Assembly: GCA_964439175.1 (NCBI GenBank)
Contig: CAYTNQ010000004.1
Span: forward strand, 8,759 to 72,758
Source of the DNA: an uncultured Anaerolineales bacterium
GTDB taxonomy: Bacteria; Chloroflexota; Anaerolineae; 4572-78; NAK82
DNA: 64,000 bases
Direction of reading: 5' to 3'
Shown here: positions 7,378 through 62,121 of the stretch, piece by piece
Position numbering within the stretch: the stretch's first letter is position 1
How the letters are laid out: each line of letters opens with the position of its first letter
The notes under the pieces: generated by a model
What the model was told of the DNA's origin: nothing
The model's input: the letters and a program-made list of their open reading frames with translations, nothing else
Database searches by the model: none
Made by a program: the position numbers and the translations under genes

Positions 7378-7432
7378 ATTGTAGCACTCTATCCTTAGAG
7401 AGCACTCAGAAGTTAATTAGAAATCAATTAGA
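7378..7432 (-). promoter_or_regulatory. Diverged copy of the shared promoter/operator cassette (upstream of the FG-GAP gene)
   Basis: The minus strand reads TCTAAT-TGATT-TCTAAT, then 32 nt, then TGC-TACAAT. The 11-bp repeat phasing and the 32-nt distance to an extended -10 box match the four stronger copies. Confidence 0.4.
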
Positions 7433-18417: not shown

Positions 18418-20106
18418 TTATTGCAGCGTACCGTCTTCGACACGATAAATACTTACGTTTGAGTTAGAGAAGGCCAGGGTAAGCCATGGCGAAGTCATAG
18501 GGTCATAGGCTCCTCCTTCACGTTCAGCGGGACCAAAGAAGACGTAGCGAATGCTGTATTGCTGGACTATCGCCTGCCGCTCAGCATCGGGTGTGGCCGG
18601 GTCAAAGAAATCTTCCACTATTTCCCGCTTGTGATTGAAGTCTATCGTCATCACGGCATTGGCCAGGAAAGCCCTATTCCCGGCTAAGCCGGGGATATAG
18701 TGCCCCGTCACAAATGCGCTAAGCACTACTTGGTCCGGGTTGGCATTTAACTCAAGCCAGCGCATGGCGGCCACTTCGTCCCGATGCAGATAGAAAGGAT
18801 AGGTGTAACGATGCAAATCCACGAAGCGCCAGGCAAACAGGTAAAGATTAGTCGGCAGGACCGCCAGCAACAGCAGGGCCGGCACCCACTGCACCAGCCG
18901 CTCTCTGACCAGCCATCGCTGCCACCGCTCCTGGCCCCATCGGGCTTCCAGCCAGGGGATGAGACGGTCGAACACAAAGTCGGTCGCCATGGCTGCCAAC
19001 ACGAACTGAAAGCCAGTTAGCAGCATCACCTGAAAACGCAGAGGAAGATAAATGATCAGCAGATTGACAATAAACCAACCCTTGAGAAAGAGATCACGAT
19101 TGGACTGCCCACGCAAGAGACTGGTCTTGGGCATCTCGAAGGAGCCCAGCCCTCGCACAAACCCACCCAGTGCCAGAAATAGGGGGATGCCTAACAGCAC
19201 CAACAAGTGCAATGGAGAAGGCGTAAAGGCCCCCAGGTTATCGTACTGCGCCAGCGCTCGCTGCCAGGTCGGGTTGGCTGACGACGATACCCAGCCAAAA
19301 TAGAGCGGAGCTGGGGCCGATACCAACACCACCACCGCCAGGCTGGTGAAGGTATGCCAGCGGAAGCCATCACGCAGGGTCAATAGAAGCCCGAACACAC
19401 CCAACACTGTCCATATCGTCACCAGGTCGTAAATGTGACCTAACCCCAAAAAGAGCGCCACTCCTGCCGCCGCCAGCGACAGGCCGAACCGGCCCCGCTG
19501 ATGCCCCAGCCACGCCAGACCCAAAGCCAGCAACATCAGCGCCAGCGCCAACGCCAGGTGAGGCGAAGCCAGCAAAACCCAAAAGGTGTTGCCGGGTGTG
19601 GTATAGATATCGTGGGGCCAACGTACGTCCGAGAGACCGTTGAGGTACTTGTCAACAATCCAGATCCAACCCAAGCCAGAGCTCAAAGTAGTCAGCCAAA
19701 ACGCGAGACGCCGCCGAGCCGGTTCGGCGAAAAACAGACTGGACAGCCAATACGCCACACTTACATACAATGGCACGGCTAACAGGCGGAAGAGTTGATA
19801 CACCTGCCTCAGCGACAGTCCGAATAGCTCTGCCGCCCGCCCCGGAATCCACCAATGCAGGTTGACAAAGACAGAGGGGTTAGGCTCCGAAGTCAGCTTG
19901 TTCTCAATGAAAAAGCGCGCGCCCGATTCACGCATCCACGACAGGTATTGTGCCGTGTCATGGACGTTGAAGATGACGCCACTGAACCACTTATCTGGTG
20001 GTGCCGACAGGTAGCCATAAACGTAGGGCAACGAGGTAACCACCAGCAACACCAGTGAAGCAATGGCCACCTCGCGCAGAACCTCGGTTTTCAGCCCACT
20101 GCTCAA
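18418..20106 (-). CDS. Large polytopic membrane protein, GT-C-like (function putative; start uncertain)
   Basis: More than 10 predicted TM segments plus a C-terminal soluble domain, embedded between GT-C genes. The listed ORF (to 20325) overlaps the upstream gene by 223 nt. A TTG at 20106 forms a TTGA overlap with the upstream stop. Confidence 0.4.
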   Translation of the reverse strand: MSSGLKTEVLREVAIASLVLLVVTSLPYVYGYLSAPPDKWFSGVIFNVHDTAQYLSWMRESGARFFIENKLTSEPNPSVFVNLHWWIPGRAAELFGLSLRQVYQLFRLLAVPLYVSVAYWLSSLFFAEPARRRLAFWLTTLSSGLGWIWIVDKYLNGLSDVRWPHDIYTTPGNTFWVLLASPHLALALALMLLALGLAWLGHQRGRFGLSLAAAGVALFLGLGHIYDLVTIWTVLGVFGLLLTLRDGFRWHTFTSLAVVVLVSAPAPLYFGWVSSSANPTWQRALAQYDNLGAFTPSPLHLLVLLGIPLFLALGGFVRGLGSFEMPKTSLLRGQSNRDLFLKGWFIVNLLIIYLPLRFQVMLLTGFQFVLAAMATDFVFDRLIPWLEARWGQERWQRWLVRERLVQWVPALLLLAVLPTNLYLFAWRFVDLHRYTYPFYLHRDEVAAMRWLELNANPDQVVLSAFVTGHYIPGLAGNRAFLANAVMTIDFNHKREIVEDFFDPATPDAERQAIVQQYSIRYVFFGPAEREGGAYDPMTSPWLTLAFSNSNVSIYRVEDGTLQ

Positions 20107-21740
20107 GACCGGGGCTGCAACCCACGTCCTTCCCTTCGAACGATCCAAAACACGCCTCCTGGAACCAAAATCAGGGGGAACAAACTGTACCAGGACGATA
20201 GCCCCACCATCATCCCCAGATTGCGGGTGATATCGCCAGCCCAGAACTTGGGCCAAAAGAAATCGACCAGCGGGTTGCCGATGATGACTGGCGCGAACTC
20301 TTGCCCCGAGACTGACGCAATCCACACCAGCCCAAACGAACTAACCACCAGGCCCCAGGTCAACATCCGCCACAGAGGCTTCTCTCGCCAGGTCCAGACA
20401 CAGAAAGCGACCGGCAGCATCAAAAAGGGCAAAATGGTCAGCAGATTGCGCGGCCCGATGGCGTAGCCACCACGCCAATCATACCAGGCGGAAACTAGTG
20501 CCAGTTGCGCCAGCACCAAACTCAGCCAGAGCACCGCTTCGCCCCGCCACCTGGGCGAGCGGAGAAGATACCAGAAGCCGGGTATCGCCAGCAACAAAAA
20601 GGGCGATAGGAAGAACAACCCCCGGTAGGGACTGAACGTAACCCCCCACAACGCTTCCAGGCTGGGCCGACTGAAGCCGAGAAAGCCGGTGTTAGAAATT
20701 TCCGGAAAACGCCCCAGGTAACGGTAGCTCGATGAAAAGGGGCTGCCAAAGGCAGAGGCATTGTACCAACCCAGAATCAGGGCAAAAGGCAATCCCCCCA
20801 GGCCGAGCTTGGCGATCTCCCACTTCCGCTCCAGAAACCAAAGGGCATACAGCGACAGAATAACCAGCAGGATCAGGGCCGGGAACTCAGTTAGCACGGC
20901 CAATCCTAGCAGCCCCCCTACCCCCCACAGCCAATGATGGCTTATCTCACACTGCCGGATACGATAGAGCAAATAAAAGGCAAAAAAGAGTAACGCGGCA
21001 GCAATTTGATGGCCATAAAAAACGGACGAGTAGGGGAAGACAATGGTCGCCAACCCGTAGGCGAGGGCCAAAATGACTCGCCCCAGGGTATGCTCGGATT
21101 TCGGGGCGAACCCTCCCGGCAGGTTGACCACGCCCGTCCAGCGACCATTGCCGTCCAGGGTATGCTCGGATTTCGGGGCGAACCCTCCCGGGGCGCCCAA
21201 TGGTCTCCCCCTCGGGGCAGGCCTGTGCAGGGGACCATTGGGCGCTCCAGAAGGATGTGTCAAGGTAGGAGTAAATAACCGTCCCATAAAAAGATAAAGC
21301 AACGCAGCCAGCAGGGCCGAAGGGAGGGAGACCGTGACGAAAGTGGTGGCGTAGAGAGCCGCTGCAAAGTAGACCTTTTGCTCCAGCAGCCCGGTGCCTC
21401 CTTCGCGCAGTGTACTGGCCAGGGCCTGGCTGCCACTTAGCCGATGCAATATGGCTCGCATCGGCGGCGTGTCGGCCACCAGCCTGAAGACAAAATACGT
21501 CGGCACTCCCAAGAATGAAGTACCGGGGGCTTTGTCGGTATAAATGTGGTCACCGTAGACGGCATAGTCGCCTGTATTCTCATAATAGTCATCAATGTGT
21601 AGTACCCCTCGCTCTACGATGGCCAACGTCAGATCCATGCGCGAGTTCTGGTTCCACTCCGCCCAACGTGGGAAGAAGTAACCGTAGCAAAAAAGCAAAA
21701 CAAAGAATATTAGTAAGGCAACTCGTTTTTCTCTGGTCAT
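20103..21740 (-). CDS. Polytopic membrane protein, GT-C-like, carrying an in-frame repeat-derived insertion
   Basis: Start preferred at ATG 21740 (MTREKRVALLIFFVLLF). The first loop, WNQNSRMDLTLAIVERG..YTDKAPGTSFLG, and multiple TM helices are GT-C-like. The loop GAPGGFAPKSEHTLDGNGRWTGVVNLPGGFAPKSEHTLGRV is encoded by repeat DNA. Confidence 0.45.
   Translation of the reverse strand: MTREKRVALLIFFVLLFCYGYFFPRWAEWNQNSRMDLTLAIVERGVLHIDDYYENTGDYAVYGDHIYTDKAPGTSFLGVPTYFVFRLVADTPPMRAILHRLSGSQALASTLREGGTGLLEQKVYFAAALYATTFVTVSLPSALLAALLYLFMGRLFTPTLTHPSGAPNGPLHRPAPRGRPLGAPGGFAPKSEHTLDGNGRWTGVVNLPGGFAPKSEHTLGRVILALAYGLATIVFPYSSVFYGHQIAAALLFFAFYLLYRIRQCEISHHWLWGVGGLLGLAVLTEFPALILLVILSLYALWFLERKWEIAKLGLGGLPFALILGWYNASAFGSPFSSSYRYLGRFPEISNTGFLGFSRPSLEALWGVTFSPYRGLFFLSPFLLLAIPGFWYLLRSPRWRGEAVLWLSLVLAQLALVSAWYDWRGGYAIGPRNLLTILPFLMLPVAFCVWTWREKPLWRMLTWGLVVSSFGLVWIASVSGQEFAPVIIGNPLVDFFWPKFWAGDITRNLGMMVGLSSWYSLFPLILVPGGVFWIVRREGRGLQPRS
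21083..21191. repeat. 72-bp-period tandem duplication inside the GT-C-like CDS
   Basis: The 37-nt string CCAGGGTATGCTCGGATTTCGGGGCGAACCCTCCCGG occurs at 21083-21119 and again at 21155-21191. The period is 72 bp (24 codons), so the duplication is in frame. Confidence 0.85.
21190..21248. repeat. Palindromic (REP-like) element inside the CDS
   Basis: GGGGCGCCCAATGGTC (21190-21205) is a 15/16 reverse-complement match to GACCATTGGGCGCTCC (21233-21248). The G/C-rich core reads CCCCTCGGGGCAGGCCTGTGCAGGGG. The right arm and core recur at about 21849-21890 in the 5' leader of the same gene. Confidence 0.8.
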
Positions 21741-21919
21741 TGTCTCGTTAGTTGTGAGTACACCCAGTTTTTCGGGGTGAACCCTCCTGCAGGTTTTGGC
21801 TGAATAAGCTGCGACTTTTAACAGCAACCTGCCCCGTGGGGGGCTTTCCCCTGTGCAGGCCTGCCCCGAGGGGGGACCATTGGGCGCTCCGGGAGAGTGT
21901 GCTCTAAACCGCTGCTAAG

Positions 21920-21975
21920 ACTTTAGCATAGGATAGTAGGAACTCAATGTGAGACTAGTTAGAAAAAAGTTAGAG
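21920..21975 (-). promoter_or_regulatory. Shared promoter/operator cassette, copy A (upstream of 20103..21740 unit)
   Basis: The minus strand reads TCTAAC-TTTTT-TCTAAC-TAG-TCTCAC-A-TTGAGT-(16 nt)-TGC-TAAAGT. It is 50/55 identical to copy B. Confidence 0.6.
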
Positions 21976-35892: not shown

Positions 35893-35950
35893 ACTCTAAC
35901 ATAGGATAATAAGAACTCAATGTGAGACTAGTTAGAAAAAAGTTAGAAAG
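35893..35950 (-). promoter_or_regulatory. Shared promoter/operator cassette, copy B
   Basis: The minus strand reads TCTAAC-TTTTT-TCTAAC-TAG-TCTCAC-A-TTGAGT-(16 nt)-TGT-TAGAGT. It ends 52 nt upstream of ATG 35841. Confidence 0.6.
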
Positions 35951-44208: not shown

Positions 44209-46059
44209 TCAAACCTCAGCCCATTCTATTTCGCCCAAGCCATGGCTGCCGCCGTAGTCCATTACGAATTGGCGCAAGTCCTCCGTGCGGACCCACCACT
44301 GGCGACCTATCTTTATGGCCGAGATGCGTCCTGTCTCGCACCAGCGGGCGGCTGTGGCCTCTGCGACCCCCAGATACTCGGCCACATCGGCACAGGAGAG
44401 CATCCCGTCGTCGGATTGGGCATGTTGACCTCGACCAAACGGCAATCCAAAACGTCCCAGCCAGCCGAGCCCGCCACGGCTGTCAGGTGCCGCCCTCCCT
44501 GATTTGACCCGGCGGCTGTAAAGGTAATAACTACGGGGCAGGCTGACCCCATTGAACACGATACCCGCCAGGTTTGTCAGTCCCAGCGCTGCAAAGCGCC
44601 CGACGGCCTTTTGGGTAGCGCGACGACTGCTTTGATCCTGCCTCACCACCAGCAATGACGCATCTACCCGAGTCGCCAGGATAGCTGCATCAGGGTGTAA
44701 TAACATCGGTCCGCAGTCAAAGACTGCCAGCCTGGCCCGCTCCCGCAAGCATCCGATCAGGCGAGTCAGGTTGGGTGATCCCAAGAGCAAAGTGGGATCA
44801 ACCGGCACCTTGCCGGCCGGCAACACCCACAGATTAGCGATATCCACTGACTGCAATGCCCGGTCCAGTGTCTCATCAAAGGTTTCTTCTGAGGCAGTTA
44901 GCACATCAGCCAACCCAAACAGGTTGGGTAGGTCGAATAATTCGTGAACCGACGGCTTGCGCAAATCAGCATCAACCACAATTGTGGGAAATCCACCCGA
45001 GGCAGTAATGGCCGCCAGATTGACCGCGGTCAGGGTTTTACCTTCTCGCATCTCCGGGCTGCTAATAAGCAACGCGCGGATATCGTGGTCGCGCATCGAA
45101 AGAAAAAGGTTCGTCCGCATATTGCGGATAGCGTCGGCCTCAGGCGACCACAAATCTTTGCGCGTGACCAGCTTATCCGACGACGACAACCTGCCCAACG
45201 CCCCCAGGATGGGGACGCCCGCCACGGTTTGGGTACCTTTGGCATGCCACGTCAAGGTATCGGTGGCGAATTCCAAAAGCAGCACGGCACTCACCGACAA
45301 AGCCAGGCCTGCTAGCGCAGCAATCAAAACGTTCTTTTTCACGTTAGGCGCAATTGGCTTCGTCGAAATGGTCGCAGGCTCGACAATGGTGAGGGTGTTG
45401 ATAGACGAATCGGAGAGATAGCCCAATAAGCTAGTATAGTTAGCCTGATAGTCTGATTTTAACGTCTGAAGTTCGGCCAGGCGTGACTTGGCCTCAGCAA
45501 TGTCAGCGGCCGAGGTCATATTCAGCATCGAATCCTCAGCCTCTTTGATCTGGCGACTTGCCTCTTCGATCTTTGACTGCAATTCCTGAAGCTGGGCATA
45601 GATGAACTGTCGTGCAGACTGCTGCTCCCGCGCTTCAGTCGGGCTCTGCAAAATCAACTCCTGGGCCACGGCATCAGCCAATATCTGCGCCCGCTGCGGG
45701 TCGACGTCAAACACAGTAATCTCAAGAAGCTGAACGTCAGGCACAACCTTGGTGCTAATCATGCCTGCCAACTGGCCAGTGCTCATATCCAGCCCCAGCT
45801 TGTCGATTACTGCTTGCGTGATGGGTTTGCGCAGCACAAGCTGACCGTAAATCTCAGCCAGGGTCCGACTCAAGCCCAAGTCACGCAAATCGGGATTGGT
45901 GCTTTGAATGCTGGTACCCACCATCAGCGTGGTCCGCGAGGCATAGATGCGCGGCTGTCGCTCGCTGTACATGTAGCTGGCACCGGCCGCCAGGGCTACA
46001 CTGACCAAAACCAGCCACCACCAGCGCTTGACAATATCAAAATAACGTCCTAAATCCAT
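44209..46059 (-). CDS. Wzz-type chain-length determinant fused to BY-kinase and to a C-terminal excisionase-type HTH
   Basis: N-terminal Wzz block (YFDIVKRWWWLVLV..) is followed by a coiled-coil and a second TM. Walker A is SPEMREGKT, Walker A' VVDADLRKP, Walker B AVFDCGP. The Tyr cluster is SYYLYS. A Gly/Arg linker leads to MLSCADVAEYLGVAEATAARWCETGRISAIKIGRQWWVRTEDLRQFV. Confidence 0.8.
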   Translation of the reverse strand: MDLGRYFDIVKRWWWLVLVSVALAAGASYMYSERQPRIYASRTTLMVGTSIQSTNPDLRDLGLSRTLAEIYGQLVLRKPITQAVIDKLGLDMSTGQLAGMISTKVVPDVQLLEITVFDVDPQRAQILADAVAQELILQSPTEAREQQSARQFIYAQLQELQSKIEEASRQIKEAEDSMLNMTSAADIAEAKSRLAELQTLKSDYQANYTSLLGYLSDSSINTLTIVEPATISTKPIAPNVKKNVLIAALAGLALSVSAVLLLEFATDTLTWHAKGTQTVAGVPILGALGRLSSSDKLVTRKDLWSPEADAIRNMRTNLFLSMRDHDIRALLISSPEMREGKTLTAVNLAAITASGGFPTIVVDADLRKPSVHELFDLPNLFGLADVLTASEETFDETLDRALQSVDIANLWVLPAGKVPVDPTLLLGSPNLTRLIGCLRERARLAVFDCGPMLLHPDAAILATRVDASLLVVRQDQSSRRATQKAVGRFAALGLTNLAGIVFNGVSLPRSYYLYSRRVKSGRAAPDSRGGLGWLGRFGLPFGRGQHAQSDDGMLSCADVAEYLGVAEATAARWCETGRISAIKIGRQWWVRTEDLRQFVMDYGGSHGLGEIEWAEV

Positions 46060-46132
46060 TGGCTTCTGCCTCCCTCTCTAGTGGCCAACGAGGCTGAAAA
46101 TTGCCACGATGAAGGTCAAACTTATCGCCCCC

Positions 46133-46189
46133 AATCTAGCATATCTGCATAGGAACCCAATGTGAGAATAGTTAGAAAAAAGTTAGAAG
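46133..46189 (-). promoter_or_regulatory. Shared promoter/operator cassette, copy C
   Basis: The minus strand reads TCTAAC-TTTTT-TCTAAC-TAT-TCTCAC-A-TTGGGT-(16 nt)-TGC-TAGATT. It is 74 nt upstream of ATG 46059 and immediately downstream of a terminator hairpin. Confidence 0.6.
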
Positions 46190-46194
46190 TACAA

Positions 46195-46235
46195 TTTGAG
46201 AGCCTTTCACCCACGGATCGGGAAAGGCTCTCAAA
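46195..46235 (-). terminator. Hairpin terminator after the TolB-like gene
   Basis: Perfect 14-bp stem TTTGAGAGCCTTTC (46195-46208) / GAAAGGCTCTCAAA (46222-46235) with a 13-nt loop. The U/A runs are part of the stem. Confidence 0.55.
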
Positions 46236-46330
46236 TTAGCAATTGGCCGACTGACTCTGAACCAATCCCACGATTCACATCCACTAGAGGGCTACACACT
46301 TACCGTGTTGAGTGGAATTGGGATAAGCAC

Positions 46331-48217
46331 TTATTCGACCTGTGTTGGGTCGCGGGCCGGATCGGTATATTTGATCCACACCGGGTCCCAGTCATTGAAT
46401 CCAGTATGACTAAGACTATACAGGCCGCTGCCGTCGGCGTTCATCACCCAAATTTGTTTATTTCCGGTACGATTGGACCAGAAAACGATTTTTGACCCAT
46501 CGGGCGACCAGGACGGGTGCTTGTCCCACCAATTATAGTGGTCGCTCGTCAACTGGCGGGCATCAGTGCCATCACGATTGATGACCCAAATCTCATCGTT
46601 GCCACTATCGGTAGAGACGAAGGCGATTTGATCCATAGTCGGCGACCAAACCGGATCGTAGGCGATCCCAGCGCCGAAGTGAGTGATTTGTTCTTCCACC
46701 TTGTAGTAAAAATCGTAAAAGAACAAAGAGGGAACCTTCAGTTGAACCGGAACAGTTCTCCCGGAGCCATTGTCTTCGGCCGTATTTATCAACGCATCCT
46801 TCACAAACACGCGATACCGCTGATCGGCCGAGTAGGCATCGCGAGCCAAAGCCACCTCGTAATGCACACGATCAGTCAGCAGCGCCAGGTTGCTCCCGTC
46901 CGGGTCTATCACGTACACCAACGGTTCATCACCGCCAGCCCGATCCGACAGAAAGGCGATCTTGCCCACCAGCACCGATGGGATAGGCTGGGGTGTGGCT
47001 GTAGGCGTGGGAGTAGGCGCAGGCGTTGGAATCTCACCGTTGAGCAGTACAAAGACCGACGTAGGCGTGGCCGTCCATACGTTCATTGGCGTGGGAGTGG
47101 GTGTGCCAAAAGCGATGACTTCAGCCATAGCGACCGCATCCTGGTACACAGCCGTGGCTGTGTTGGCCGGCGCAGGGCGCGGCGTGACGACGATAGGCGT
47201 CACCCAGTTCTCCGGGACCGGGGTGTAGGTGCCCGTTGCAGTTGCCACCTGGGTGGCCGTGGCCGCCAGTGCCGCCACAGTGAAAATATTCTCCGGCGTC
47301 GGCGTGCTGGTGACCACAACGTAGGTGGCCGTTGGTGTCGGGGTGTAGCCGGCCGCCAGCGCTTCGGCCTCGGACGTTTGAGTGACGTTGGGTATGGGCG
47401 TGGGCAACAAAACTCCCAGACGCAAAATAGGGCCATGTCCCAACGTACCCGACCCGTATCCCGTGTCCCAGGCAAAGAGATTCTCTTCACCACCAGCCGG
47501 CCCATCAATCCGAAACGAGACACTGCCCACCGCCAGCCGACTCTCAAGCAGTGCACGCTGTTCAGCACTGAACTCAAAAATGTTAATGTGCGTTCGTCCC
47601 AAGTCGGGGGGCATTAACACAGGTGGGATGACAGCATCCACCGGCGCATTACCGATAACTTCGTAGGTGTGAGAGGCCCAGCGATCCTCCATCGCTTCGC
47701 CCAAAAGCGATAGTGTCCACGTCCCTTCGCTTCCTAATCCGGCATCTTGCAGGCCAGTCAGCTCGAGTTGCGCTGAATAAATCAGAGCATCCGGTGGCAG
47801 GAAAGACAGGTCAAATTGCATGGCACCCAGGTAACGATGATCGGCACTCCAACCGGCAAAGAGGTTACTATCGCCAAAGTGATTGCCACTTTCACCAGAG
47901 CGCACCCAGCCGACCGCATTGACGTGCGGAGAAATAGCGTATACAATCCCTCCAATCGCTGAAACAGGAGCAACTGTTGGGCTGGCTGCGGGCTCTGGGC
48001 TCTCTGTTGGCAATACCTGCGGCCGTGGGGTCACCGTCGGCGATGGTAATGGGGTGAAGGTAGCCGTTGCCGTAGATTCGATCAGCATCTGTGGCGTGGC
48101 AGGTTCCGGTGAGTTAGCGCCCAGATAAACCAGCACCCCCAAGATGCCCATTCCCGTCAGCAAGACCACAATAGCGACGATTGTCCGGGTACCCAACCTC
48201 TCACGTAATTGCCACAT
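46331..48217 (-). CDS. Membrane-anchored TolB-like (PD40/WD40-like beta-propeller) protein with Pro/Thr-rich linkers
   Basis: N-terminal TM (IVAIVVLLTGMGILGVLVYL). A domain containing AMQFDLSFLPPDALIYSAQLELTG follows. Long PT linkers are present (TPTPTATYVVVTSTPTP, PTPAPTPTPTATPQP). C-terminal PD40 repeats include WSPDGSKIVFWSNRTGNKQIWVMNADGSG. Confidence 0.7.
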   Translation of the reverse strand: MWQLRERLGTRTIVAIVVLLTGMGILGVLVYLGANSPEPATPQMLIESTATATFTPLPSPTVTPRPQVLPTESPEPAASPTVAPVSAIGGIVYAISPHVNAVGWVRSGESGNHFGDSNLFAGWSADHRYLGAMQFDLSFLPPDALIYSAQLELTGLQDAGLGSEGTWTLSLLGEAMEDRWASHTYEVIGNAPVDAVIPPVLMPPDLGRTHINIFEFSAEQRALLESRLAVGSVSFRIDGPAGGEENLFAWDTGYGSGTLGHGPILRLGVLLPTPIPNVTQTSEAEALAAGYTPTPTATYVVVTSTPTPENIFTVAALAATATQVATATGTYTPVPENWVTPIVVTPRPAPANTATAVYQDAVAMAEVIAFGTPTPTPMNVWTATPTSVFVLLNGEIPTPAPTPTPTATPQPIPSVLVGKIAFLSDRAGGDEPLVYVIDPDGSNLALLTDRVHYEVALARDAYSADQRYRVFVKDALINTAEDNGSGRTVPVQLKVPSLFFYDFYYKVEEQITHFGAGIAYDPVWSPTMDQIAFVSTDSGNDEIWVINRDGTDARQLTSDHYNWWDKHPSWSPDGSKIVFWSNRTGNKQIWVMNADGSGLYSLSHTGFNDWDPVWIKYTDPARDPTQVE

Positions 48218-53345: not shown

Positions 53346-53401
53346 AGTCTAACAGCTTTTAATCATAAAGGCGTGAGAATATACTTAGAAAAAAGTTAGA
53401 A
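53346..53401 (-). promoter_or_regulatory. Shared promoter/operator cassette, copy D
   Basis: The minus strand reads TCTAAC-TTTTT-TCTAAG-TATAT-TCTCAC-(21 nt)-TGT-TAGACT. The distance from the second repeat to the -10 box is 32 nt, as in copies A-C. It is 59 nt upstream of ATG 53287. Confidence 0.5.
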
Positions 53402-55195: not shown

Positions 55196-56479
55196 TTAAT
55201 GCACCTCGAGCGCTGGCAGACTGGCCTGAAGCGGAAGCGCGCCACAGACTTCCCAGCGGTGCGGTGGACGAAGAACACCCTTCTCGCCTCCAATAAGGCG
55301 GACGAGCAGCGGATAGGCATGCCAATGATAATCGTAAGCATAAGCCCAGTTTTGCTCGTAGACGCCGACGTCCACATAGTATTCTCCCCCGTTGAGGTCG
55401 AGCCGATCCAGTTGTAATACGATCTGGCCCCTGCCCTGGAGTGTTGGCAGAGTCAGCCCGGCTGCCGATGTGTTGGTATCATAGCAGACAAAGCCATCCT
55501 CACGGGTAATGGTGACACCAAAGATCGCTGCTGAGATAGGCTGAGGGGCCAGATACTCGATTTCGACGCGCAAAGGATCACCACTCTTCAACTCTGTGAC
55601 CAGAAAGCCATCGGTGTCGAGCAAGCGAACGGCGACAATCTCCATCGCTAACGACCCAAAGCGGTTCTCGTTGACCCGCAGTTCGGCACCGGTGGCTGTG
55701 CGTAGAGCGGGCCGCGCTGCCGGTGTGCGCCGCCGCGTCTCTGCCGACATCTCTGCCACATACTGTCCCACTACCACATCCGCCGCCCCGTAAGCTGCCA
55801 TATGTCCGGTACGCAGCCATAATACCTGGTCGCACAGTTGCTGGACCATGGTAGCATCGTGGGAAACGAGGATGATGGTACAGCCCTCGGCTTTGAACTG
55901 AGCGATTCGCTCCAGGCACTTGCGCTGAAACGCCATATCCCCGACTGCCAGCACCTCGTCAATCAGCAAGATCTCGGGCTCCATATGGGCGGCGATGGCA
56001 AAGGCCAGCCGCATCTGCATGCCGGTGCTGTAGGTGCGCAGCGGGTTATCAATAAACTGCTCGAGTTCCGCAAAGGCTACGATTGAGTCGAATCGTTGCG
56101 CCACCTCGCGACGGGTAAAGCCACTGATAACTCCATTGACGAAAACGTTCTCCCGCCCCGTCAGGTCAGGGTGAAAACCAGCCCCCAGGTCCAGCAGCGC
56201 GCCAATCCGTCCGTTGGCCTTCACACTGCCCTCATCAGGCCGTCCGACGCCGCCGATAAGCCGCAGCAACGTCGATTTTCCCGCTCCATTGGGACCAATC
56301 ACTCCGACCATGCACCCCGGGGCAATGCTGAAACTGACATTGCGCAGCGCCCAAAACTGCTCCGCTGGCCCCAACCGGCGCAGGCCATGCAGGAGCGCCT
56401 CCTTGAGCGTCACCGGACGATCAGTGTGATAGCGGCGGAATTGCTTGCCCAAACCCCGCGCAACAATCGCATCGCTCAT
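55196..56479 (-). CDS. wzt: Polysaccharide ABC exporter ATPase, second copy, with C-terminal glycan-binding-type domain
   Basis: Walker A GPNGAGKST, signature YSTGMQMRL and Walker B LLIDEVLAVGD. A ~170-aa beta-rich C-terminal extension is present. The ATG directly abuts the TAG of the upstream fusion gene. Confidence 0.85.
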   Translation of the reverse strand: MSDAIVARGLGKQFRRYHTDRPVTLKEALLHGLRRLGPAEQFWALRNVSFSIAPGCMVGVIGPNGAGKSTLLRLIGGVGRPDEGSVKANGRIGALLDLGAGFHPDLTGRENVFVNGVISGFTRREVAQRFDSIVAFAELEQFIDNPLRTYSTGMQMRLAFAIAAHMEPEILLIDEVLAVGDMAFQRKCLERIAQFKAEGCTIILVSHDATMVQQLCDQVLWLRTGHMAAYGAADVVVGQYVAEMSAETRRRTPAARPALRTATGAELRVNENRFGSLAMEIVAVRLLDTDGFLVTELKSGDPLRVEIEYLAPQPISAAIFGVTITREDGFVCYDTNTSAAGLTLPTLQGRGQIVLQLDRLDLNGGEYYVDVGVYEQNWAYAYDYHWHAYPLLVRLIGGEKGVLRPPHRWEVCGALPLQASLPALEVH

Positions 56480-59416
56480 CTACAATTCCTCCACAAAGCG
56501 GCAACTGGCCCTGGTAAAGATAACGTAGCCGAGTCCCAGCAGCCCAGCAGTGAGAGCGGCAAGTCCCAACAGCGACAGACCATCTGGCAACTTCCCCCAG
56601 ATCAGGATAGCACGATAGGCATCAAGCATATGCATCATCGGGTTGAGACGATAGACAAGGCGGTAGCGCGCCGGAACAGCGCTGGCATCATAGAAGACGG
56701 GAGTGAGATAGAAAAGCAGCAGCAGCAGCACACCCAAGAGGTGTTGCGTGTCCCGGAAGGTAACGTGAAAGGTCGCCACCAGATAGGCCAGGCTAAGGAT
56801 AAGCAGGAATTGAACGGCAATCACCAACGGCAGCGCCACGAACGCCCCCGTCGGCCGCAAGCCGCTGAGCATCAGGAAGAGCAACAGGATAGGGAGCGCC
56901 AGCAGGAAGTGGATCATGTTGCTCATCACCGTGACCACCGGCAGAATGGCCGCCGGGAAACCGGGGCGCTTGATCAGATCGCGATTGTCGGTGATGGCGC
57001 CGGCTGCCAACAATAACGATGATTGGAACCAACTCCAGGCCAATACACCGCTGAAGACAAATAGGGGATAGTTCGGGATGTTGAGCGGCAGAACGCGACG
57101 GAAGAGGAAGATAAAGATCAGCAATTGGGCCAGCGGATTGAGGAGCGACCAAGCGATACCCAGCACCGAGCGCTTGTAGCGCAGTTTCATATCACGGGAA
57201 ACCAACTCGCGCAGCAGGTCGCGCAGATAGATCAGCCGCCGTGTGTAGAGCGGTGCGCTGGCATTGATCGTGATGGAGTTTCTTTGTAGGATCAGCACCG
57301 CACCAATGCCCAACACAACGCCAAGGACAAGCAACAAAGGCAACAAGGTATCAAGAGTGCTCGCCAATGTCCGGCCTTGTGCCAGCGCCAGCGTTGTCTG
57401 TACCTCGACCACGCCGTCCTGTGCCGCGATGGAATGGTAGTCTTGATCGCTATTGGTATCCCAGACCTCGCTCGCAACGCCGCCGCGCAGCTTCGTTGTC
57501 TCGAAGACATAGTCTATAGTCGCGCCGGAAGGTACCTGTACCTTGGCGACGAACGTGTCCCCCTCACGGACCATCGGAGTATACATGAGCGCATCTTTCA
57601 CCCGCGTCCCGGCCGGACGTGTCTCTTCGGTCACAACAGCCCACCCATTGATCCCCCAGACCAGAAACACCTCACCCGCTTCGGGCATATGGTAGCGGAT
57701 ATCCTGAGTGACAAGCGGAGTGTCAGCAGCCCTCGCAAGCGTCTGAGCCTGTGACAGAGCCAGTGTTGAGACTTCTGCCGGGCTAAGAACCCGATAAATA
57801 ACATACTGGGAAGTCTGAGAATGGAATTGACAGGTGCGCTTTATGTGCTCGACTAACGCGGGGTGACCTGTCCAAAAGTCCTTTTTACGCTCACTGGCAA
57901 TCCCCAGCCAGTCTGCACCCTTAGCCCGGAGTTCCTCGAACATTCGGATGGATTCATTGTCATCTTCAGGCAGTTGGTCCCACACGATATCATTGGAAGC
58001 AGGTGGGAAAATCCACCCACGCCGCCGGCTATAGTAGATGGCGTTAGGATCGCCAAGATCACTCGCCATGGTGACGACTAGGTCGCCCGGTTGCGATACT
58101 TGACGCAGAGCCAACCCCAACCCGTAGCTTTCGTCCCCATAGGGTCTGGTATACATATTCTTCAAAACATTCTGCCCAGCCCCACCAATTATGAGCAAGA
58201 ACACCGCCACTGCTGCTCGTGAGGCAAGCGGCCGTGTGCTCAAGGGCCTGAGGGATGCAATCGAAACGATGGCGTGGCCCGCCAGCGCCGCCCCTACGGG
58301 GTTGATAATGTGGAAGTTCCAAGGGTTGTCGACAAGCTCTTTGGCACCAATGAAGTAGTAAAAGATACCGGCGAGAAGCCACCAGTGAAACAGCCAGGGT
58401 GCCTTACCCGAGTTGTTTATTGGCAACTGGTCCTCCCCAGACTCCCGGCTGCGCTCCCTTCCGGGTGGGCGGAGGAGCAGACCCAGTGAAACAAGATAGA
58501 TCACAGGCGCAGCCCACAACCAATAGTAGAAATTCACTTGCAGGCTTGGAAGGAAATAGTTTTGGTCCCACCATTCCCTCAATCCATCATTCCAAAGCCA
58601 GTTTCCAGAACCCGCAAAATGGTATGGTGGGTAAGAGAGGGAAAGATGTCTCGCCCAGAGGTAGTAGCCGATCACCGGCGCCAATGCAAGGACCCCTACG
58701 ACACCAGGTATCACGAGCTTCGCCGGCTGCAATTTCCGCTTAGCGCCGAGGATAGTTAGCGTAGCGTAGGCCATTGGGAGCCCAACGATCAAGCCAGGAA
58801 TTTTCGTGAGGAGACCCCACGCTCCGGTCACCCCCGCCAGCAGCAAGTAGCGCTGGCGTTCAGTTTGGAGGTAGGCAACCAGCATCCAGAGGCTGGTTAT
58901 CATCAGCGCTACCATAGCTGGATCAGGTAGAAACGATCGTTCAACAAAAATGCTCCCCGGCAAAACCGCCATGACGGCGGCGCTGGCAATAGCACGCTCT
59001 TCATCCCACACCCGACGGACGAGTTGATAGAGAGCGAAGATACCCCACAAGCCAAACATCACGGCTACACTGCGTCCGACCCAATCCTGCTGGCCGACGA
59101 TGGTGTAAAGCACCGCTGCTATGTAAGACACTGTCTGAAATTCACGTCCCTGGTAGTTAGGCCCTGGCCCGCCCCAGTTCACTTCTGGGTAGAAGATGTT
59201 CCAATTGGTGCGGTAGAAGTTATCTGCCATCATAGCGGTACTGGCCTGTCGCCAACTGAAGACATCTGTAAAAGGTTGGGTGATGTGATGAAGCCGCAGG
59301 ATACCCGCAATGACCAGGACGATTACAATTTGTAGCGTGATCAGGCGCGCTGAGAAGTTATTGCACGGGTGAAAACGTTGTGGATAAGTTTTAGTGTAGA
59401 AACCAGGTGTTTTCAT
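56480..59416 (-). CDS. Fusion protein: GT-C (ArnT/PMT_2-like) glycosyltransferase + beta-sandwich carbohydrate-binding-like module + Wzm ABC-2 permease
   Basis: Residues are numbered from the listed ORF start. Residues ~35-560 form a GT-C pattern (FSWRQASTAMMADNFYR.., many TM helices, soluble C-domain). Residues ~585-690 form a beta-sandwich (EVFLVWGINGW..DTFVAKVQVPSGATIDYVF). A single TM spans 703-723. Residues ~735-991 form a complete Wzm (LLRELVSRDMKLRYKRSVLGIAWSLLNP plus 6 TM). No stop codon occurs anywhere in the ORF. ATG 59416 makes an ATGA overlap with the upstream gene. Confidence 0.75.
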   Translation of the reverse strand: MKTPGFYTKTYPQRFHPCNNFSARLITLQIVIVLVIAGILRLHHITQPFTDVFSWRQASTAMMADNFYRTNWNIFYPEVNWGGPGPNYQGREFQTVSYIAAVLYTIVGQQDWVGRSVAVMFGLWGIFALYQLVRRVWDEERAIASAAVMAVLPGSIFVERSFLPDPAMVALMITSLWMLVAYLQTERQRYLLLAGVTGAWGLLTKIPGLIVGLPMAYATLTILGAKRKLQPAKLVIPGVVGVLALAPVIGYYLWARHLSLSYPPYHFAGSGNWLWNDGLREWWDQNYFLPSLQVNFYYWLWAAPVIYLVSLGLLLRPPGRERSRESGEDQLPINNSGKAPWLFHWWLLAGIFYYFIGAKELVDNPWNFHIINPVGAALAGHAIVSIASLRPLSTRPLASRAAVAVFLLIIGGAGQNVLKNMYTRPYGDESYGLGLALRQVSQPGDLVVTMASDLGDPNAIYYSRRRGWIFPPASNDIVWDQLPEDDNESIRMFEELRAKGADWLGIASERKKDFWTGHPALVEHIKRTCQFHSQTSQYVIYRVLSPAEVSTLALSQAQTLARAADTPLVTQDIRYHMPEAGEVFLVWGINGWAVVTEETRPAGTRVKDALMYTPMVREGDTFVAKVQVPSGATIDYVFETTKLRGGVASEVWDTNSDQDYHSIAAQDGVVEVQTTLALAQGRTLASTLDTLLPLLLVLGVVLGIGAVLILQRNSITINASAPLYTRRLIYLRDLLRELVSRDMKLRYKRSVLGIAWSLLNPLAQLLIFIFLFRRVLPLNIPNYPLFVFSGVLAWSWFQSSLLLAAGAITDNRDLIKRPGFPAAILPVVTVMSNMIHFLLALPILLLFLMLSGLRPTGAFVALPLVIAVQFLLILSLAYLVATFHVTFRDTQHLLGVLLLLLFYLTPVFYDASAVPARYRLVYRLNPMMHMLDAYRAILIWGKLPDGLSLLGLAALTAGLLGLGYVIFTRASCRFVEEL

Positions 59417-62121
59417 TCCTGCCAGCCTACATTCAGGCTTTTCAAACTCCTCCAAGACCCATAGGATAACTCAGGTTGTTTATGGCGCTGGGAAACCGGG
59501 ACGTAGGGGTGGCTGTGGCCTTCGCGCCTGACACGCCGTCGTGACTGCCACAACGACCACGGTCCGGCCAGATTTCCTGCAATTTCAAGCAAGGTTAGCA
59601 ACAACGGATAGTCGCTCTTTTTGCCCCGCAGCCGATCCTTCAATTGCCACACGATCTGCCGCAGGCGCCAGCGTGGCATATGGACCGCCAAGTGTAGTAA
59701 CGCCCGCAGATCGTGATCGCGCAGCAGGGTCGTCACATGGTAAGCCACGTGGCCCTTACTGTAGTCGTAGATCTGGCGGCGCAGCGCTGACATATCGCGA
59801 CGATGCTTGTGCCGGACGTAGGCCGCCGGCTCATACACGAGCGTGTAGCCAGCCTTGAGCACTTTATAGAAAAGATACGTATCCTCTCCGACGCCGGCAG
59901 GCATGCCCGGTCCCAACGCTTCGTCCATCAGGCCTATCTGGGGATGGCTGAAGATACTGGCGCGAAAAGCAGCGTTGGCAGTTGCCCCCAGCTCCCACGT
60001 TGGTACAGCCTGGCGCCGAAATGATTCGAACCAGTCACCGCCGACCTCAAGCCGCTTAAAGCCACGTCCCAGGCCGCCGTATCTCTCAAAGAAGCACTGA
60101 GCCGAGGTTTCCAGTTCCAACGGCAAGGTATTGCCGGTCACGATCATCACATCGCTTCGAACGAAGGGGGCCACCAGCTTCTCCAGCCAATCGGGCGGGA
60201 CTATCACATCATCGTCTGTGGCGATAACGATGTCACCTTGACTGGCGGCAAATCCCGCATTACGAGCGTAAGCCAGTCCCCGGCGCGGCTCGTCTACCAA
60301 CACCACCCCCGGGAACTCGGCAACCACGGGTGGCGTCAGGCCAGAGGCCGGATTGTTGTCAACCACAACGATTTCGAAAAGCCGCGGCGACTCCTGGGCG
60401 ATCAGGCAGCGCAGGCATTCACGCAGACCGTCCGGCCGGTTGAGGGTCGCTACCACGACTGAGACTGAGACATCGGCAGGTAGTCTGGCAGACGCAGATG
60501 TCTCCGTCCCACCCACTGTCGGCATATAGTGCCGATTCAGGGCTGCCGCTATTTCAGCCCAGAGGAATTCCAGGCTTAAGTCGCGATCTGGCTCGACCAG
60601 TTTGAGGCCAAGTTGATCGACAATAGCCTGGCGCAGGCGGGTCGCGCTGACAGGTTGGTGATAGTTGGGGATATCCGCGCTACCCAGAAGGCGATCGTTC
60701 CAGGTCACAAAGACGCGCACCTGGGCGTAATCCGTCACGTCGGTCAACGCAGGCAAAGTTTGAGCCAAGTCGACGGTGCGCACCGCGACAGCGTCTCGAG
60801 GCTTGGAGATTCTCTTAGGTGACAGATGCCTCCCAGGAATCACAACCTGGGTAACAGGCCCAAAGCTATTGGCGACCCGAGCAGCAGCCTGGCGGGCCTT
60901 CCGGTAACGGCCCAAGCCTATAAAGGAGCCTTGCAATTCGGCCAGGATTAGATTACGCGGGAGGCGGGCCGGACGTACCAGGGAGACCAACAGAGGACGT
61001 ACATTCCCCTTCCACAGCCACCACAGGCCGAAACGGATGAAAGCAGAGCGCTCATCCGGATAAGCCAGGGCACTGCGCACAAAATACGAGTACAGGCCAA
61101 CACCATTGTTGGTTATCTGCCTTTGCAGTTGGCCGTAATCGCGGCGGTGGCGGTGGCGTACAATTGCGCTGGGCTCATAGACCAGTGTGTATCCTTCTTT
61201 TAACACGCGGAAGAACATTTCGAGGTCACCACCGCCGTTGGTGACTGTGCCTACATCCAGGGCTGGATCAAAGTACCCAATTTGGTCGAACAGGCTGCGA
61301 CGGTAGGCCATATTAGCCCCGGTGCCGAACTGTCCTGCGCCGTGATACGACCATTGCTCACCATTTTCTCGTTCCACCCGGTACCACCTTCGCTCGAAAC
61401 CGCGCCCGAAGCCGCCGTGCCATTCAAAGAAGATTTGGGCCTCGGTCTCAAGTTCATAGGGCACCACCAACCCGGTGACAGCCATCACATGCGGGCCTTC
61501 GGTGAAGACGCTGGTCAAAGCCCTGACCCAACCCGGGTCAACCACCCCATCGTCGTCTGTGTAGGCGATGATCTCACCCTGGGCCTCGATGATTGCCCGG
61601 TTGCGCGCCCAATTGAGGCCAGGCCGGGGCTCGCGAATATAGCGCACGCCTGGGTAGCTGGTGCGTATCAGGTGTTCGGTAGCATCACTGCTCGGCGCAT
61701 TATCCACAACCAGAAGATCAAGATCCGGGTAATCGAGTCGGCACAAGGCATCCAAACAGATCGCCAGGTCATCCGTGCGGTCGCGGGTACAGACCGCCAC
61801 CGTCACCAACGGGAATGGCCCAGTGGAGATTGGGTGCGCCCCATGAGCCAGGTCTGCAATACGTAGTCCACCCGGTTGTGGCGGGGCTGCCAACCCATCA
61901 CGCAATAGATGGCGTATGATGGCCCAGCTATGTTGATCCAGGATAGCTTTTCTCAGGGCTGCTGCTGTGCAGCGGCCGCCAATTACGGGCACCTGGACAT
62001 ATCCAATCGGCGTGCCGTGCAGGCGGACCAGTCCCCATAGAGCCACATAACCGTCCAGGCCCTCGATAGTCGTAGGCGGACAGCTCAATTCGATATCCAC
62101 CACTTTCATACGCTGAAACAC
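59413..62121 (-). CDS. Dual-module GT2 glycosyltransferase (putative glycan polymerase)
   Basis: Two complete GT2 modules. The first carries VVDNAPSSDAT / YTDDDGVVDPGW / GANMAYRR..GGGDLEMFFRVLKEGYTLVYEP. The second carries VVDNNPASGLT / ATDDDVIVPPDW / ANAAFRA..GVGEDTYLFYKVLKAGYTLVYEP. Confidence 0.8.
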   Translation of the reverse strand: MFQRMKVVDIELSCPPTTIEGLDGYVALWGLVRLHGTPIGYVQVPVIGGRCTAAALRKAILDQHSWAIIRHLLRDGLAAPPQPGGLRIADLAHGAHPISTGPFPLVTVAVCTRDRTDDLAICLDALCRLDYPDLDLLVVDNAPSSDATEHLIRTSYPGVRYIREPRPGLNWARNRAIIEAQGEIIAYTDDDGVVDPGWVRALTSVFTEGPHVMAVTGLVVPYELETEAQIFFEWHGGFGRGFERRWYRVERENGEQWSYHGAGQFGTGANMAYRRSLFDQIGYFDPALDVGTVTNGGGDLEMFFRVLKEGYTLVYEPSAIVRHRHRRDYGQLQRQITNNGVGLYSYFVRSALAYPDERSAFIRFGLWWLWKGNVRPLLVSLVRPARLPRNLILAELQGSFIGLGRYRKARQAAARVANSFGPVTQVVIPGRHLSPKRISKPRDAVAVRTVDLAQTLPALTDVTDYAQVRVFVTWNDRLLGSADIPNYHQPVSATRLRQAIVDQLGLKLVEPDRDLSLEFLWAEIAAALNRHYMPTVGGTETSASARLPADVSVSVVVATLNRPDGLRECLRCLIAQESPRLFEIVVVDNNPASGLTPPVVAEFPGVVLVDEPRRGLAYARNAGFAASQGDIVIATDDDVIVPPDWLEKLVAPFVRSDVMIVTGNTLPLELETSAQCFFERYGGLGRGFKRLEVGGDWFESFRRQAVPTWELGATANAAFRASIFSHPQIGLMDEALGPGMPAGVGEDTYLFYKVLKAGYTLVYEPAAYVRHKHRRDMSALRRQIYDYSKGHVAYHVTTLLRDHDLRALLHLAVHMPRWRLRQIVWQLKDRLRGKKSDYPLLLTLLEIAGNLAGPWSLWQSRRRVRREGHSHPYVPVSQRHKQPELSYGSWRSLKSLNVGWQE

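Follow-up and report, generated by a model that had tools for sequence, protein, structure and literature searches.

A predicted tyrosine autokinase with a C-terminal excisionase-type helix-turn-helix domain, and a direct-repeat promoter element that accompanies it in Anaerolineae

Bacterial tyrosine kinases (BY-kinases) have a central role in regulating capsule and exopolysaccharide production. In Escherichia coli, the cycle of Wzc leads from a dephosphorylated octamer to phosphorylated monomers and back, and in all BY-kinases known to us the tyrosine cluster ends the protein. The feedback of BY-kinase phosphorylation on gene expression is partly understood, and the known links run through separate substrate proteins; in Bacillus subtilis, the BY-kinase PtkA phosphorylates the separate transcription factors FatR and SalA. 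Membrane-bound one-component activators such as ToxR, TcpP and CadC respond to an envelope-side signal, and BldC and Xis-type domains bind direct repeats as head-to-tail multimers. Here we analysed a stretch of 64,000 nt from an uncultured Anaerolineales bacterium (GenBank GCA_964439175.1, contig CAYTNQ010000004.1, positions 8,759-72,758; hereafter the window). One of its genes encodes a Wzc-like BY-kinase that continues, in the same polypeptide, into a helix-turn-helix (HTH) domain of the HTH_17/excisionase type, and the promoter region of this gene carries a direct-repeat cassette that recurs in the window and in related loci.

The open reading frame (ORF) of 616 codons was continuous and had no internal stop. 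A first-pass annotation, made from the letters alone, had quoted the motifs SPEMREGKT, VVDADLRKP and FDCGP and a Tyr cluster for this ORF, and all of them were found in the sequence, the cluster corresponding to Y511, Y512 and Y514 (Table 1). The curated BY-kinase profile TIGR01007 was passed with 130.4 bits (cut-off 108.05), PF01656 (CbiA) with 29.1 bits (cut-off 25.4), and PF02706 (Wzz) with 25.6 bits (cut-off 25.5); GNVR was matched weakly, and TIGR01006 and TIGR03007 gave partial matches in the extracytoplasmic domain. Residues G340, K341, D363, D365 and D448 were invariant in an alignment of 41 family members. The AlphaFold2 model built from this 41-sequence alignment had a mean predicted local distance difference test score (pLDDT) of 78.9, with a confident kinase domain at about 90. 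When the body was compared with known structures by Foldseek, full-length E. coli Wzc (9R62, 7NHR) was matched with an E-value of about 1e-27, and CapAB with a template modelling (TM) score of 0.87.

The first-pass annotation had also assigned the protein the layout of a class 2a polysaccharide co-polymerase (PCP-2a). The Wzz region, the two transmembrane helices and the Walker motifs supported this layout, but the extracytoplasmic domain did not, because it spans only about 205 residues where a PCP-2a protein has a periplasmic domain of about 400. The Wza and Wzb partners of a PCP-2a cluster were also missing, as neither Poly_export/Wza nor low-molecular-weight protein tyrosine phosphatase or PHP was matched among the window ORFs scanned or in syntenic loci. 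With so short an extracytoplasmic domain, the body resembles a fused CapA/CapB-type co-polymerase more than it does a classical PCP-2a protein. All these results identified the body as a Wzc/CapAB-like polysaccharide co-polymerase and a predicted tyrosine autokinase.

The Tyr cluster of this protein does not lie at its C-terminus but between the kinase and the HTH. The cluster and the linker behind it (residues 508-550) were predicted to be disordered, with a pLDDT of about 30, and the linker had a mean charge of +2.6. The first-pass annotation had noted that the frame runs on after the Tyr cluster and reaches an HTH of the excisionase/MerR type, and had quoted a peptide, which was located from M553 (ATG 44403) to V599 (44263). 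This reading was borne out by profile cut-offs, AlphaFold, Foldseek, about 65 homologous protein clusters and codon-level selection. PF12728 (HTH_17) scored 41.2 bits on the full-length protein and 45.0 on the tail alone (cut-off 27), and TIGR01764 (excise) scored 30.4 and 34.1 bits, respectively (cut-off 28.8). Among the profiles that the annotation had suggested, these two and PF02706 passed, and PF13614 failed with 11.6 bits against a cut-off of 27. In the AlphaFold2 model the HTH reached a pLDDT of 84-89, with strands at residues 553-555, 582-584 and 587-591 and helices at 556-563, 567-576 and 592-603.

The Foldseek search with a tail-only model placed DNA-bound BldC (6AMA/6AMK) at the top, with TM scores of 0.75-0.80 and a root-mean-square deviation of 1.5-1.9 Å over about 50 residues, followed by RacA, Xis of mycobacteriophage Pukovnik and the RdfS excisionase (TM scores from 0.70). 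A sequence-profile search of the PDB with the tail returned 4J2N, 5I41 and 6AMK/6AMA at E-values of 2e-4 to 1e-3. The BldC family profile NF033787 was not passed by the fused domain (15.4-18 bits, cut-off 77). It is not a canonical MerR protein either, since no match to PF00376 or PF13411 was found and only 13 residues follow the HTH, and Trans_reg_C, the OmpR-type winged HTH, had no match in the fusion protein. Integrase, recombinase and phage genes, which would mark an excisionase in the sense of a recombination directionality factor, were absent from the window, and the fusion gene belongs to a glycan cluster that is conserved on the chromosome. A further tyrosine, Y604 (44248-44250), stands directly after the last HTH helix in the pattern F-x-x-x-Y-[QG] and was kept in at least 90% of the main-family members; it could be a structural residue or an additional phospho-acceptor.

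A search for the same domain order, as the first-pass annotation had proposed, was performed against 5.8 billion protein clusters. About 65 clusters, with 36-92% identity, shared the length and the C-terminal PF12728 of the window protein, and all of them came from Anaerolineae or Chloroflexota metagenome bins. Remoter BY-kinases (at most 40% identity, 520-570 aa) were without the HTH. An exhaustive search yielded further 50%-identity clusters combining a P-loop with HTH_17, a metagenome scan with the HTH core found 17 loci, mostly short, and among the matches listed for GTDB species representatives the fusion was present in 2 of 80 loci, one from a Caldilineaceae and one from an Anaerolineae metagenome-assembled genome. 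In the family alignment the HTH residues W573 and W588 were invariant, every aligned tail had a Tyr-rich cluster at the position of Y511-Y514, and the linker motif [WLF][LF]x[KR][ILV][WL]PF was found in most members. Codon comparison with a 91%-identical homologue gave ratios of synonymous to non-synonymous changes of 15:4 in the HTH, 59:25 in the kinase and 8:10 in the linker; the HTH ratio indicated that this domain is translated in the present frame and is under purifying selection. Taken from these comparative data, the fusion of a BY-kinase with HTH_17 is real and evolutionarily conserved.

Other Chloroflexota BY-kinases (P0093, P0098, P0104) carry different additions behind the kinase, namely FHA (PF00498/PF16697), HhH (PF14520) and GAF (PF13185/PF01590) domains, and the BY-kinase C-terminus may be a general docking point for signalling and output domains in this phylum. 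Among the nearest HTH_17 relatives, for example P0121 (623 aa), are proteins with up to eight tandem MerR/HTH_17 repeats per chain, in keeping with a domain type that binds arrays head-to-tail.

The first-pass annotation had placed the fusion gene directly behind copy C of a repeated operator-like cassette, and this was confirmed, as the gene starts 112 nt downstream of GTTAGA-N5-GTTAGA at 46171-46187. This pattern occurred four times in the window, on one strand only, against 0.15 occurrences expected. Read on the coding strand, the cassettes follow one plan: TCTAAC-TTTTT-TCTAAC, 3-5 bases, TCTCAC, a -35-like TTGrrT, a 16-nt spacer and an extended -10 (TGn-TAnAnT), the last of which was recognised by eye in all cassette copies. 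The three half-sites lie at about -62 to -37 with an 11-bp period. The four main copies stand at the heads of four successive minus-strand operons, and a scan with the generalised motif TC[TA]AA[CT]-N5-TC[TA]AA[CGT] added a fifth, weaker copy, which precedes the gene of a giant secreted FG-GAP/PKD/Big_1 protein with a likely true start at ATG 7311. Together, the five copies suggest a compact regulon whose promoters share a nearly identical cassette of 55 bp. A scanner for consensus sigma-70 promoters found none at 46000-46400, because the -35 element is weak. An RNA element in the cassette or the 5' untranslated region was considered as another explanation and was rejected, since Rfam gave 0 matches and the fold of the untranslated region had a z-score of -0.74.

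The cassette was then followed across relative loci, which carry labels such as L001, L081 and L104. In the upstream intergenic region of five loci whose fusion proteins are 52-91% identical, the cassette was the sole conserved block. Its repeat core was essentially invariant in 20 instances from about ten genomes, while the -35 element and the spacer drifted. Orthologues of cassette D were found upstream of the HAD gene in L082, L083, L102, L103, L105 and L001, and those of cassette B at L081:14604 and L082:21675. In 19 non-redundant fusion loci (338 kb), the generalised motif had 27 matches, whereas shuffled sequences gave 1.0 on average and 4 at most, and all 27 were co-oriented with the downstream genes. 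The same motif was matched nowhere in the 304 kb of 25 Chloroflexota BY-kinase loci that have no HTH, nor in the full 1.29 Mb of non-fusion loci.

A subgroup of fusion loci, L104, L106 and L107 (which have a different linker, without the WPF motif) together with L086, was without TCTAAC and had the one-base variant TCAAAC-N5-TCAAAC with the same 11-bp period. The variant repeat lies about 9 nt upstream of an extended -10 (TGTTACAAT), nearer than in the TCTAAC cassette; its sites are L104:3432, L106:3356 and 17379, L107:3435 and L086:1459. These results demonstrated a conserved direct-repeat promoter element that is specific to this cluster and travels with the fusion.

Table 1 Positions of the fusion gene, its protein domains, the promoter cassettes and the free HTH_17 genes (window coordinates unless a locus label is given)
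Feature	Position	Strand	Basis
Fusion gene, Wzc-like BY-kinase with C-terminal HTH_17, 616 aa	44209..46059 (including stop codon)	-	ORF listing, Pfam/NCBIfam, homologues
Transmembrane helix 1, about residues 13-34	45958..46023	-	hydrophobic stretch WWWLVLVSVALAAGASYMY; AlphaFold2 helix 14-34
Extracytoplasmic Wzz/chain-length-determinant domain, about residues 35-239, long coiled helical hairpin	45343..45957	-	PF02706, Foldseek
Transmembrane helix 2, about residues 240-265	45265..45342	-	AlphaFold2 helix 240-265; hydrophobic sequence NVLIAALAGLALSVSAVLLLEFA
Cytoplasmic BY-kinase P-loop domain, residues 312-507	44539..45126	-	TIGR01007, invariant residues, pLDDT about 90, CapAB match
Walker A SPEMREGKT, residues 334-342	45034-45060	-	sequence
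Walker A' VVDADLRKP, residues 361-369	44953-44979	-	sequence
Walker B FDCGP, residues 447-451	44707-44721	-	sequence
Tyr cluster YYLY (Y511, Y512, Y514), presumed autophosphorylation sites	44518..44529	-	sequence
Disordered basic Gly/Arg-rich linker, residues 508-552	44404..44538	-	pLDDT about 30, relaxed selection
Semi-conserved aromatic linker motif WLGRFGLPF	44437-44463	-	family alignment
Winged HTH, HTH_17/excisionase type, residues 553-603, beta-alpha-alpha-beta-beta-alpha	44251..44403	-	PF12728, TIGR01764, AlphaFold2, Foldseek
Cassette C, fusion-gene promoter	46133..46187	-	pattern count, alignment of window copies, cross-locus conservation
Cassette C, direct repeats TCTAAC with T5 between	46182-46187 and 46171-46176	-	alignment
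Cassette C, third half-site TCTCAC	46162-46167	-	alignment
Cassette C, -35-like TTGGGT	46155-46160	-	alignment
Cassette C, extended -10 TGC-TAGATT	46133-46141	-	alignment
Cassette D, TCTAAC-T5-TCTAAG, upstream of HAD-phosphatase-to-Tricorn-like operon	53384..53400	-	pattern count, alignment, orthologous copies
Cassette B, upstream of glycosyltransferase operon 35841 to 21990	35931..35947	-	pattern count, Pfam, orthologous copies
Cassette A, upstream of operon 21827 to 12925 (GT2, PMT_2, BNR)	21958..21974	-	pattern count, Pfam
Fifth, weaker copy TCTAAT-N5-TCTAAT, extended -10 TGCTACAAT	7416..7432	-	generalised motif scan
Free HTH_17 genes, 58-94 aa	L103:5556-5798, L104:6640-6816, L105:6581-6862, L106:6429-6713, L107:6558-6818

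We propose, with somewhat less than even confidence, that the fusion protein, tethered to the membrane and gated by phosphorylation, regulates the cluster in which it is encoded. Binding of the tail to the cassette, which would couple assembly to transcription, is what we infer, with comparative support from the co-occurrence of cassette and fusion. In this proposal, the HTH would bind head-to-tail to the 11-bp-periodic repeats TCTAAC-T5-TCTAAC(-N3-5-TCnCAC), both in the promoter of the fusion gene itself and in at least four other promoters of the same glycan and surface-protein cluster. Such binding is suggested because domains of the BldC/Xis type occupy direct repeats in this way, because the half-sites are one helical turn apart, and because the fused HTH is the only DNA-binding domain that is consistently present. 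The position of the repeats upstream of the -35 element points to activation, and the fusion protein might thus be a membrane-tethered activator of its own regulon, similar to ToxR or CadC. Since kinase and HTH flank the Tyr cluster, and since Wzc alternates between octamer and monomer, the autophosphorylation state could set the valency of the HTH and its avidity for repeat arrays. The status of polymer assembly and export would thereby be coupled to transcription of the cluster.

A more detailed version of this mechanism, which we regard as doubtful, treats the octameric co-polymerase as a multivalent, phosphorylation-gated transcription factor. The dephosphorylated ring would place eight flexibly tethered, BldC-like HTHs head-to-tail on the three-half-site TCTAAC arrays of at least five promoters. 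The ring-bound HTHs would switch on the whole glycan and surface-protein regulon and would physically anchor the locus to the export machine. Autophosphorylation of the Tyr cluster would then dissolve the ring or repel the DNA and turn the regulon off, closing a feedback loop from export to transcription within one protein. We know of no such one-protein loop for any BY-kinase.

Several observations weigh against the proposal of a tethered regulator. The HTH core of the fused family is near-neutral (mean net charge +0.7, window copy -1), whereas free HTH_17 proteins encoded in some of the related clusters are strongly basic (+5 to +6). At the position where BldC, Xis and RacA have a Lys ('xKT'), the fused family has Asp, Glu or Ala, and the N-terminus of the recognition helix differs between genomes while the repeat core does not. 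The A/T-rich repeat occupies the position of an UP element, and a membrane-tethered factor must draw chromosomal DNA to the membrane. Neither the TCTAAC nor the TCAAAC motif was present in the most divergent fusions, L002, L108 and L109 (36-42% identity). Finally, the co-occurrence of motif and fusion is confounded by phylogeny, as the fusion loci all belong to related Anaerolineae and Caldilineae. In L108 (42% identity), the intergenic regions on either side of the fusion gene are full of short tandem or inverted repeats (8822-8920 and 9921-10001), made of CCCTAAC heptamers and ATTTTAGATTTTGG-type units, which stand in place of the TCTAAC cassette.

The low charge of the HTH, its variable recognition helix facing an invariant repeat core and the UP-element position of the repeat (about -40 to -62) would also suit a different explanation, namely that the fused HTH binds DNA but does not target the TCTAAC cassette. 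This cassette would then serve as an UP-like or activator element particular to the lineage and recognised by the C-terminal domain of the RNA polymerase alpha subunit or by a regulator encoded elsewhere, and the HTH would act at other sites or non-specifically, for example as a RacA-like tether of the nucleoid or locus at the membrane machinery; RacA, a chromosome anchor, was indeed among the best sequence and fold matches. We consider this explanation unlikely. The repeat core is far better conserved than the promoter around it, and the strict 11-bp periodicity of the hexamers, together with the third half-site, is typical of protein operators. The motif is also absent from the Chloroflexota BY-kinase loci that have no HTH. 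Furthermore, the 64 kb contain no second regulator: another DNA-binding domain was found neither by Pfam on the large ORFs nor by a hidden Markov model of the family HTH tails on six-frame translations, and the intergenic gaps of the window are too small for a hidden regulator.

The free HTH_17 proteins raise another alternative. Their genes, found in the more distant relatives L103-L107, belong to the same conserved cluster, between the radical-SAM and Tricorn-like genes, and the proteins are 38-48% identical to the fused domain. They could be the true cassette binders. The kinase-borne HTH would then be a partner or decoy with an indirect effect on regulation, stacking head-to-tail with the free protein and recruiting or sequestering it at the membrane, or presenting it to the kinase as a substrate. 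Besides the higher charge of the free paralogues, the tandem arrays in which HTH_17 of this subtype often occurs, with up to 8 per chain, imply domain stacking and would favour this idea. We judge it improbable, because six genomes that have both cassette and fusion (the window, L081, L082, L083, L102 and L001) were without a free HTH_17 gene in the cluster and its fetched flanks. The DNA-contact region of the free paralogues is also identical in TCTAAC and TCAAAC genomes and so does not track the change of operator; across fused and free HTH domains, no convincing specificity-determining change was found that follows the operator type.

It is less probable still, and in our estimate only slightly so at all, that the HTH acts as a soluble regulator after proteolysis of the linker or internal initiation at M553. 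The linker is long, disordered and weakly constrained, and in the window and its closest relatives an in-frame ATG stands exactly at the start of the HTH, from which the first-pass annotation had suggested a free 64-aa HTH. However, M553 is replaced by Leu, Thr or Phe in most family members, and the sequence upstream of it (CCGACGACGGG) contains no Shine-Dalgarno motif, whereas the true start codon is preceded by GGGAGG. On these two grounds the internal ATG was ruled out as a family feature. No protease site or partner protease is evident, and the fusion has been kept over 36-92% identity, so tethering presumably matters. That the fusion is an assembly or frameshift artefact joining a BY-kinase gene to a small excisionase-like gene, or hides a missed stop, has nothing but the unusual architecture in its favour and is rejected as having a negligible chance, since the same continuous ORF recurs in about 65 clusters that are independent of one another and stem from many samples and assemblers, with purifying selection on in-frame codons and a conserved linker motif.

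The entire 64 kb is a glycan and surface-protein region. It encodes GT2 and GT4 transferases, Wzy, two Wzm/Wzt pairs, PMT_2 transferases, a 2-epimerase, AsnB-like enzymes, a radical-SAM enzyme, a Tricorn/PD40-like protein and the FG-GAP/PKD/Big_1 protein of 1,500 aa. In all related loci the fusion gene has a Tricorn-like (or GHMP-kinase) gene before it and an export and assembly block of variable content behind it; in this block the window and its close relatives have Wzm/Wzt, whereas loci with at most 55% identity have Wzx/Wzy. A perfect hairpin with an 11-bp stem (46198-46232, minus strand; GAGAGCCTTTC...GAAAGGCTCTC) separates the Tricorn-like gene of the window from cassette C. It has counterparts in L081, L083 and L102 and no clear U-tract, and probably serves as terminator for the upstream operon. 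Elsewhere in the window, a 991-aa ORF (56480-59455, minus strand) joins a PMT_2-type glycosyltransferase (residues 109-262) to an ABC-2 Wzm-like permease (748-951), an unusual transferase-transporter fusion that adjoins a Wzt ATPase (55196-56479) bearing the carbohydrate-binding domain Wzt_C. Two large ORFs at the head of the cassette-A operon (18418-20325 and 20103-21827, minus strand; 635 and 574 aa) had no Pfam match at E <= 1e-4.

If the proposed mechanism is true, it would be the most direct coupling yet of polymer assembly to transcription. The tail of about 110 residues and 55 bp of DNA make a simple in vitro system, even for organisms that are uncultured. The analysis also defines a candidate compact regulon and a promoter architecture, with an extended -10 and upstream direct repeats, in Anaerolineae, for which we know of almost no characterised transcriptional regulation. 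The component families are known, and their combination and the paired operator-like element appear to be unannotated. Because members of the family are named only 'polysaccharide biosynthesis tyrosine autokinase' (e.g. MCL4295947.1, MBI1878347.1, HLF29140.1), current annotation hides their extra HTH domain.

Compared with known systems, the fusion protein is closest in its body to Wzc, Etk and CapAB (7NHR, 3LA6, 3BFV/4JLV), with which it shares two transmembrane helices around a Wzz-type domain, a P-loop kinase with Walker A, A' and B motifs, a Tyr cluster after the kinase, and a gene at the head of a glycan-export cluster. Unlike in these proteins, its Tyr cluster lies inside the chain, with a linker and a DNA-binding-type domain behind it, and the fusion protein differs from the Wzc type also in the short extracytoplasmic domain and in that no Wza-type outer membrane polysaccharide export protein or phosphatase partner was seen in the window. 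Export in the fusion cluster is served by the Wzm/Wzt ATP-binding cassette system in the window and by Wzx/Wzy in relatives.

The tail has the same fold (TM scores 0.70-0.80) and the signature LGVS..T..RW...G.L.A.K.GR.W in common with BldC, Pukovnik Xis (4J2N), RdfS (8DGL) and RacA, and the direct-repeat binding mode of BldC and Xis matches the geometry of the TCTAAC-N5-TCTAAC-N3-5-TCnCAC array. BldC, Xis, RdfS and RacA are free, soluble proteins of 50-80 aa, whereas the fused HTH forms the C-terminal end of a kinase that is a polytopic membrane protein; it is near-neutral rather than basic, and the window offers no integrase or att context. With ToxR, TcpP and CadC the likeness is functional and hypothetical. 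The proposed action, a DNA-binding domain on the inner side of the membrane that occupies direct repeats just upstream of the -35 element and activates genes upon an envelope-side signal, would be shared, but ToxR-type proteins have an N-terminal OmpR-type winged HTH, one transmembrane helix and a periplasmic sensor, while the fusion protein has a C-terminal HTH_17 on a kinase with two transmembrane helices, and the two are not homologous. PtkA-type control likewise links a BY-kinase to gene expression, but there the DNA-binding protein is a separate substrate, whereas in the fusion protein the DNA-binding domain is part of the same polypeptide, next to the Tyr cluster.

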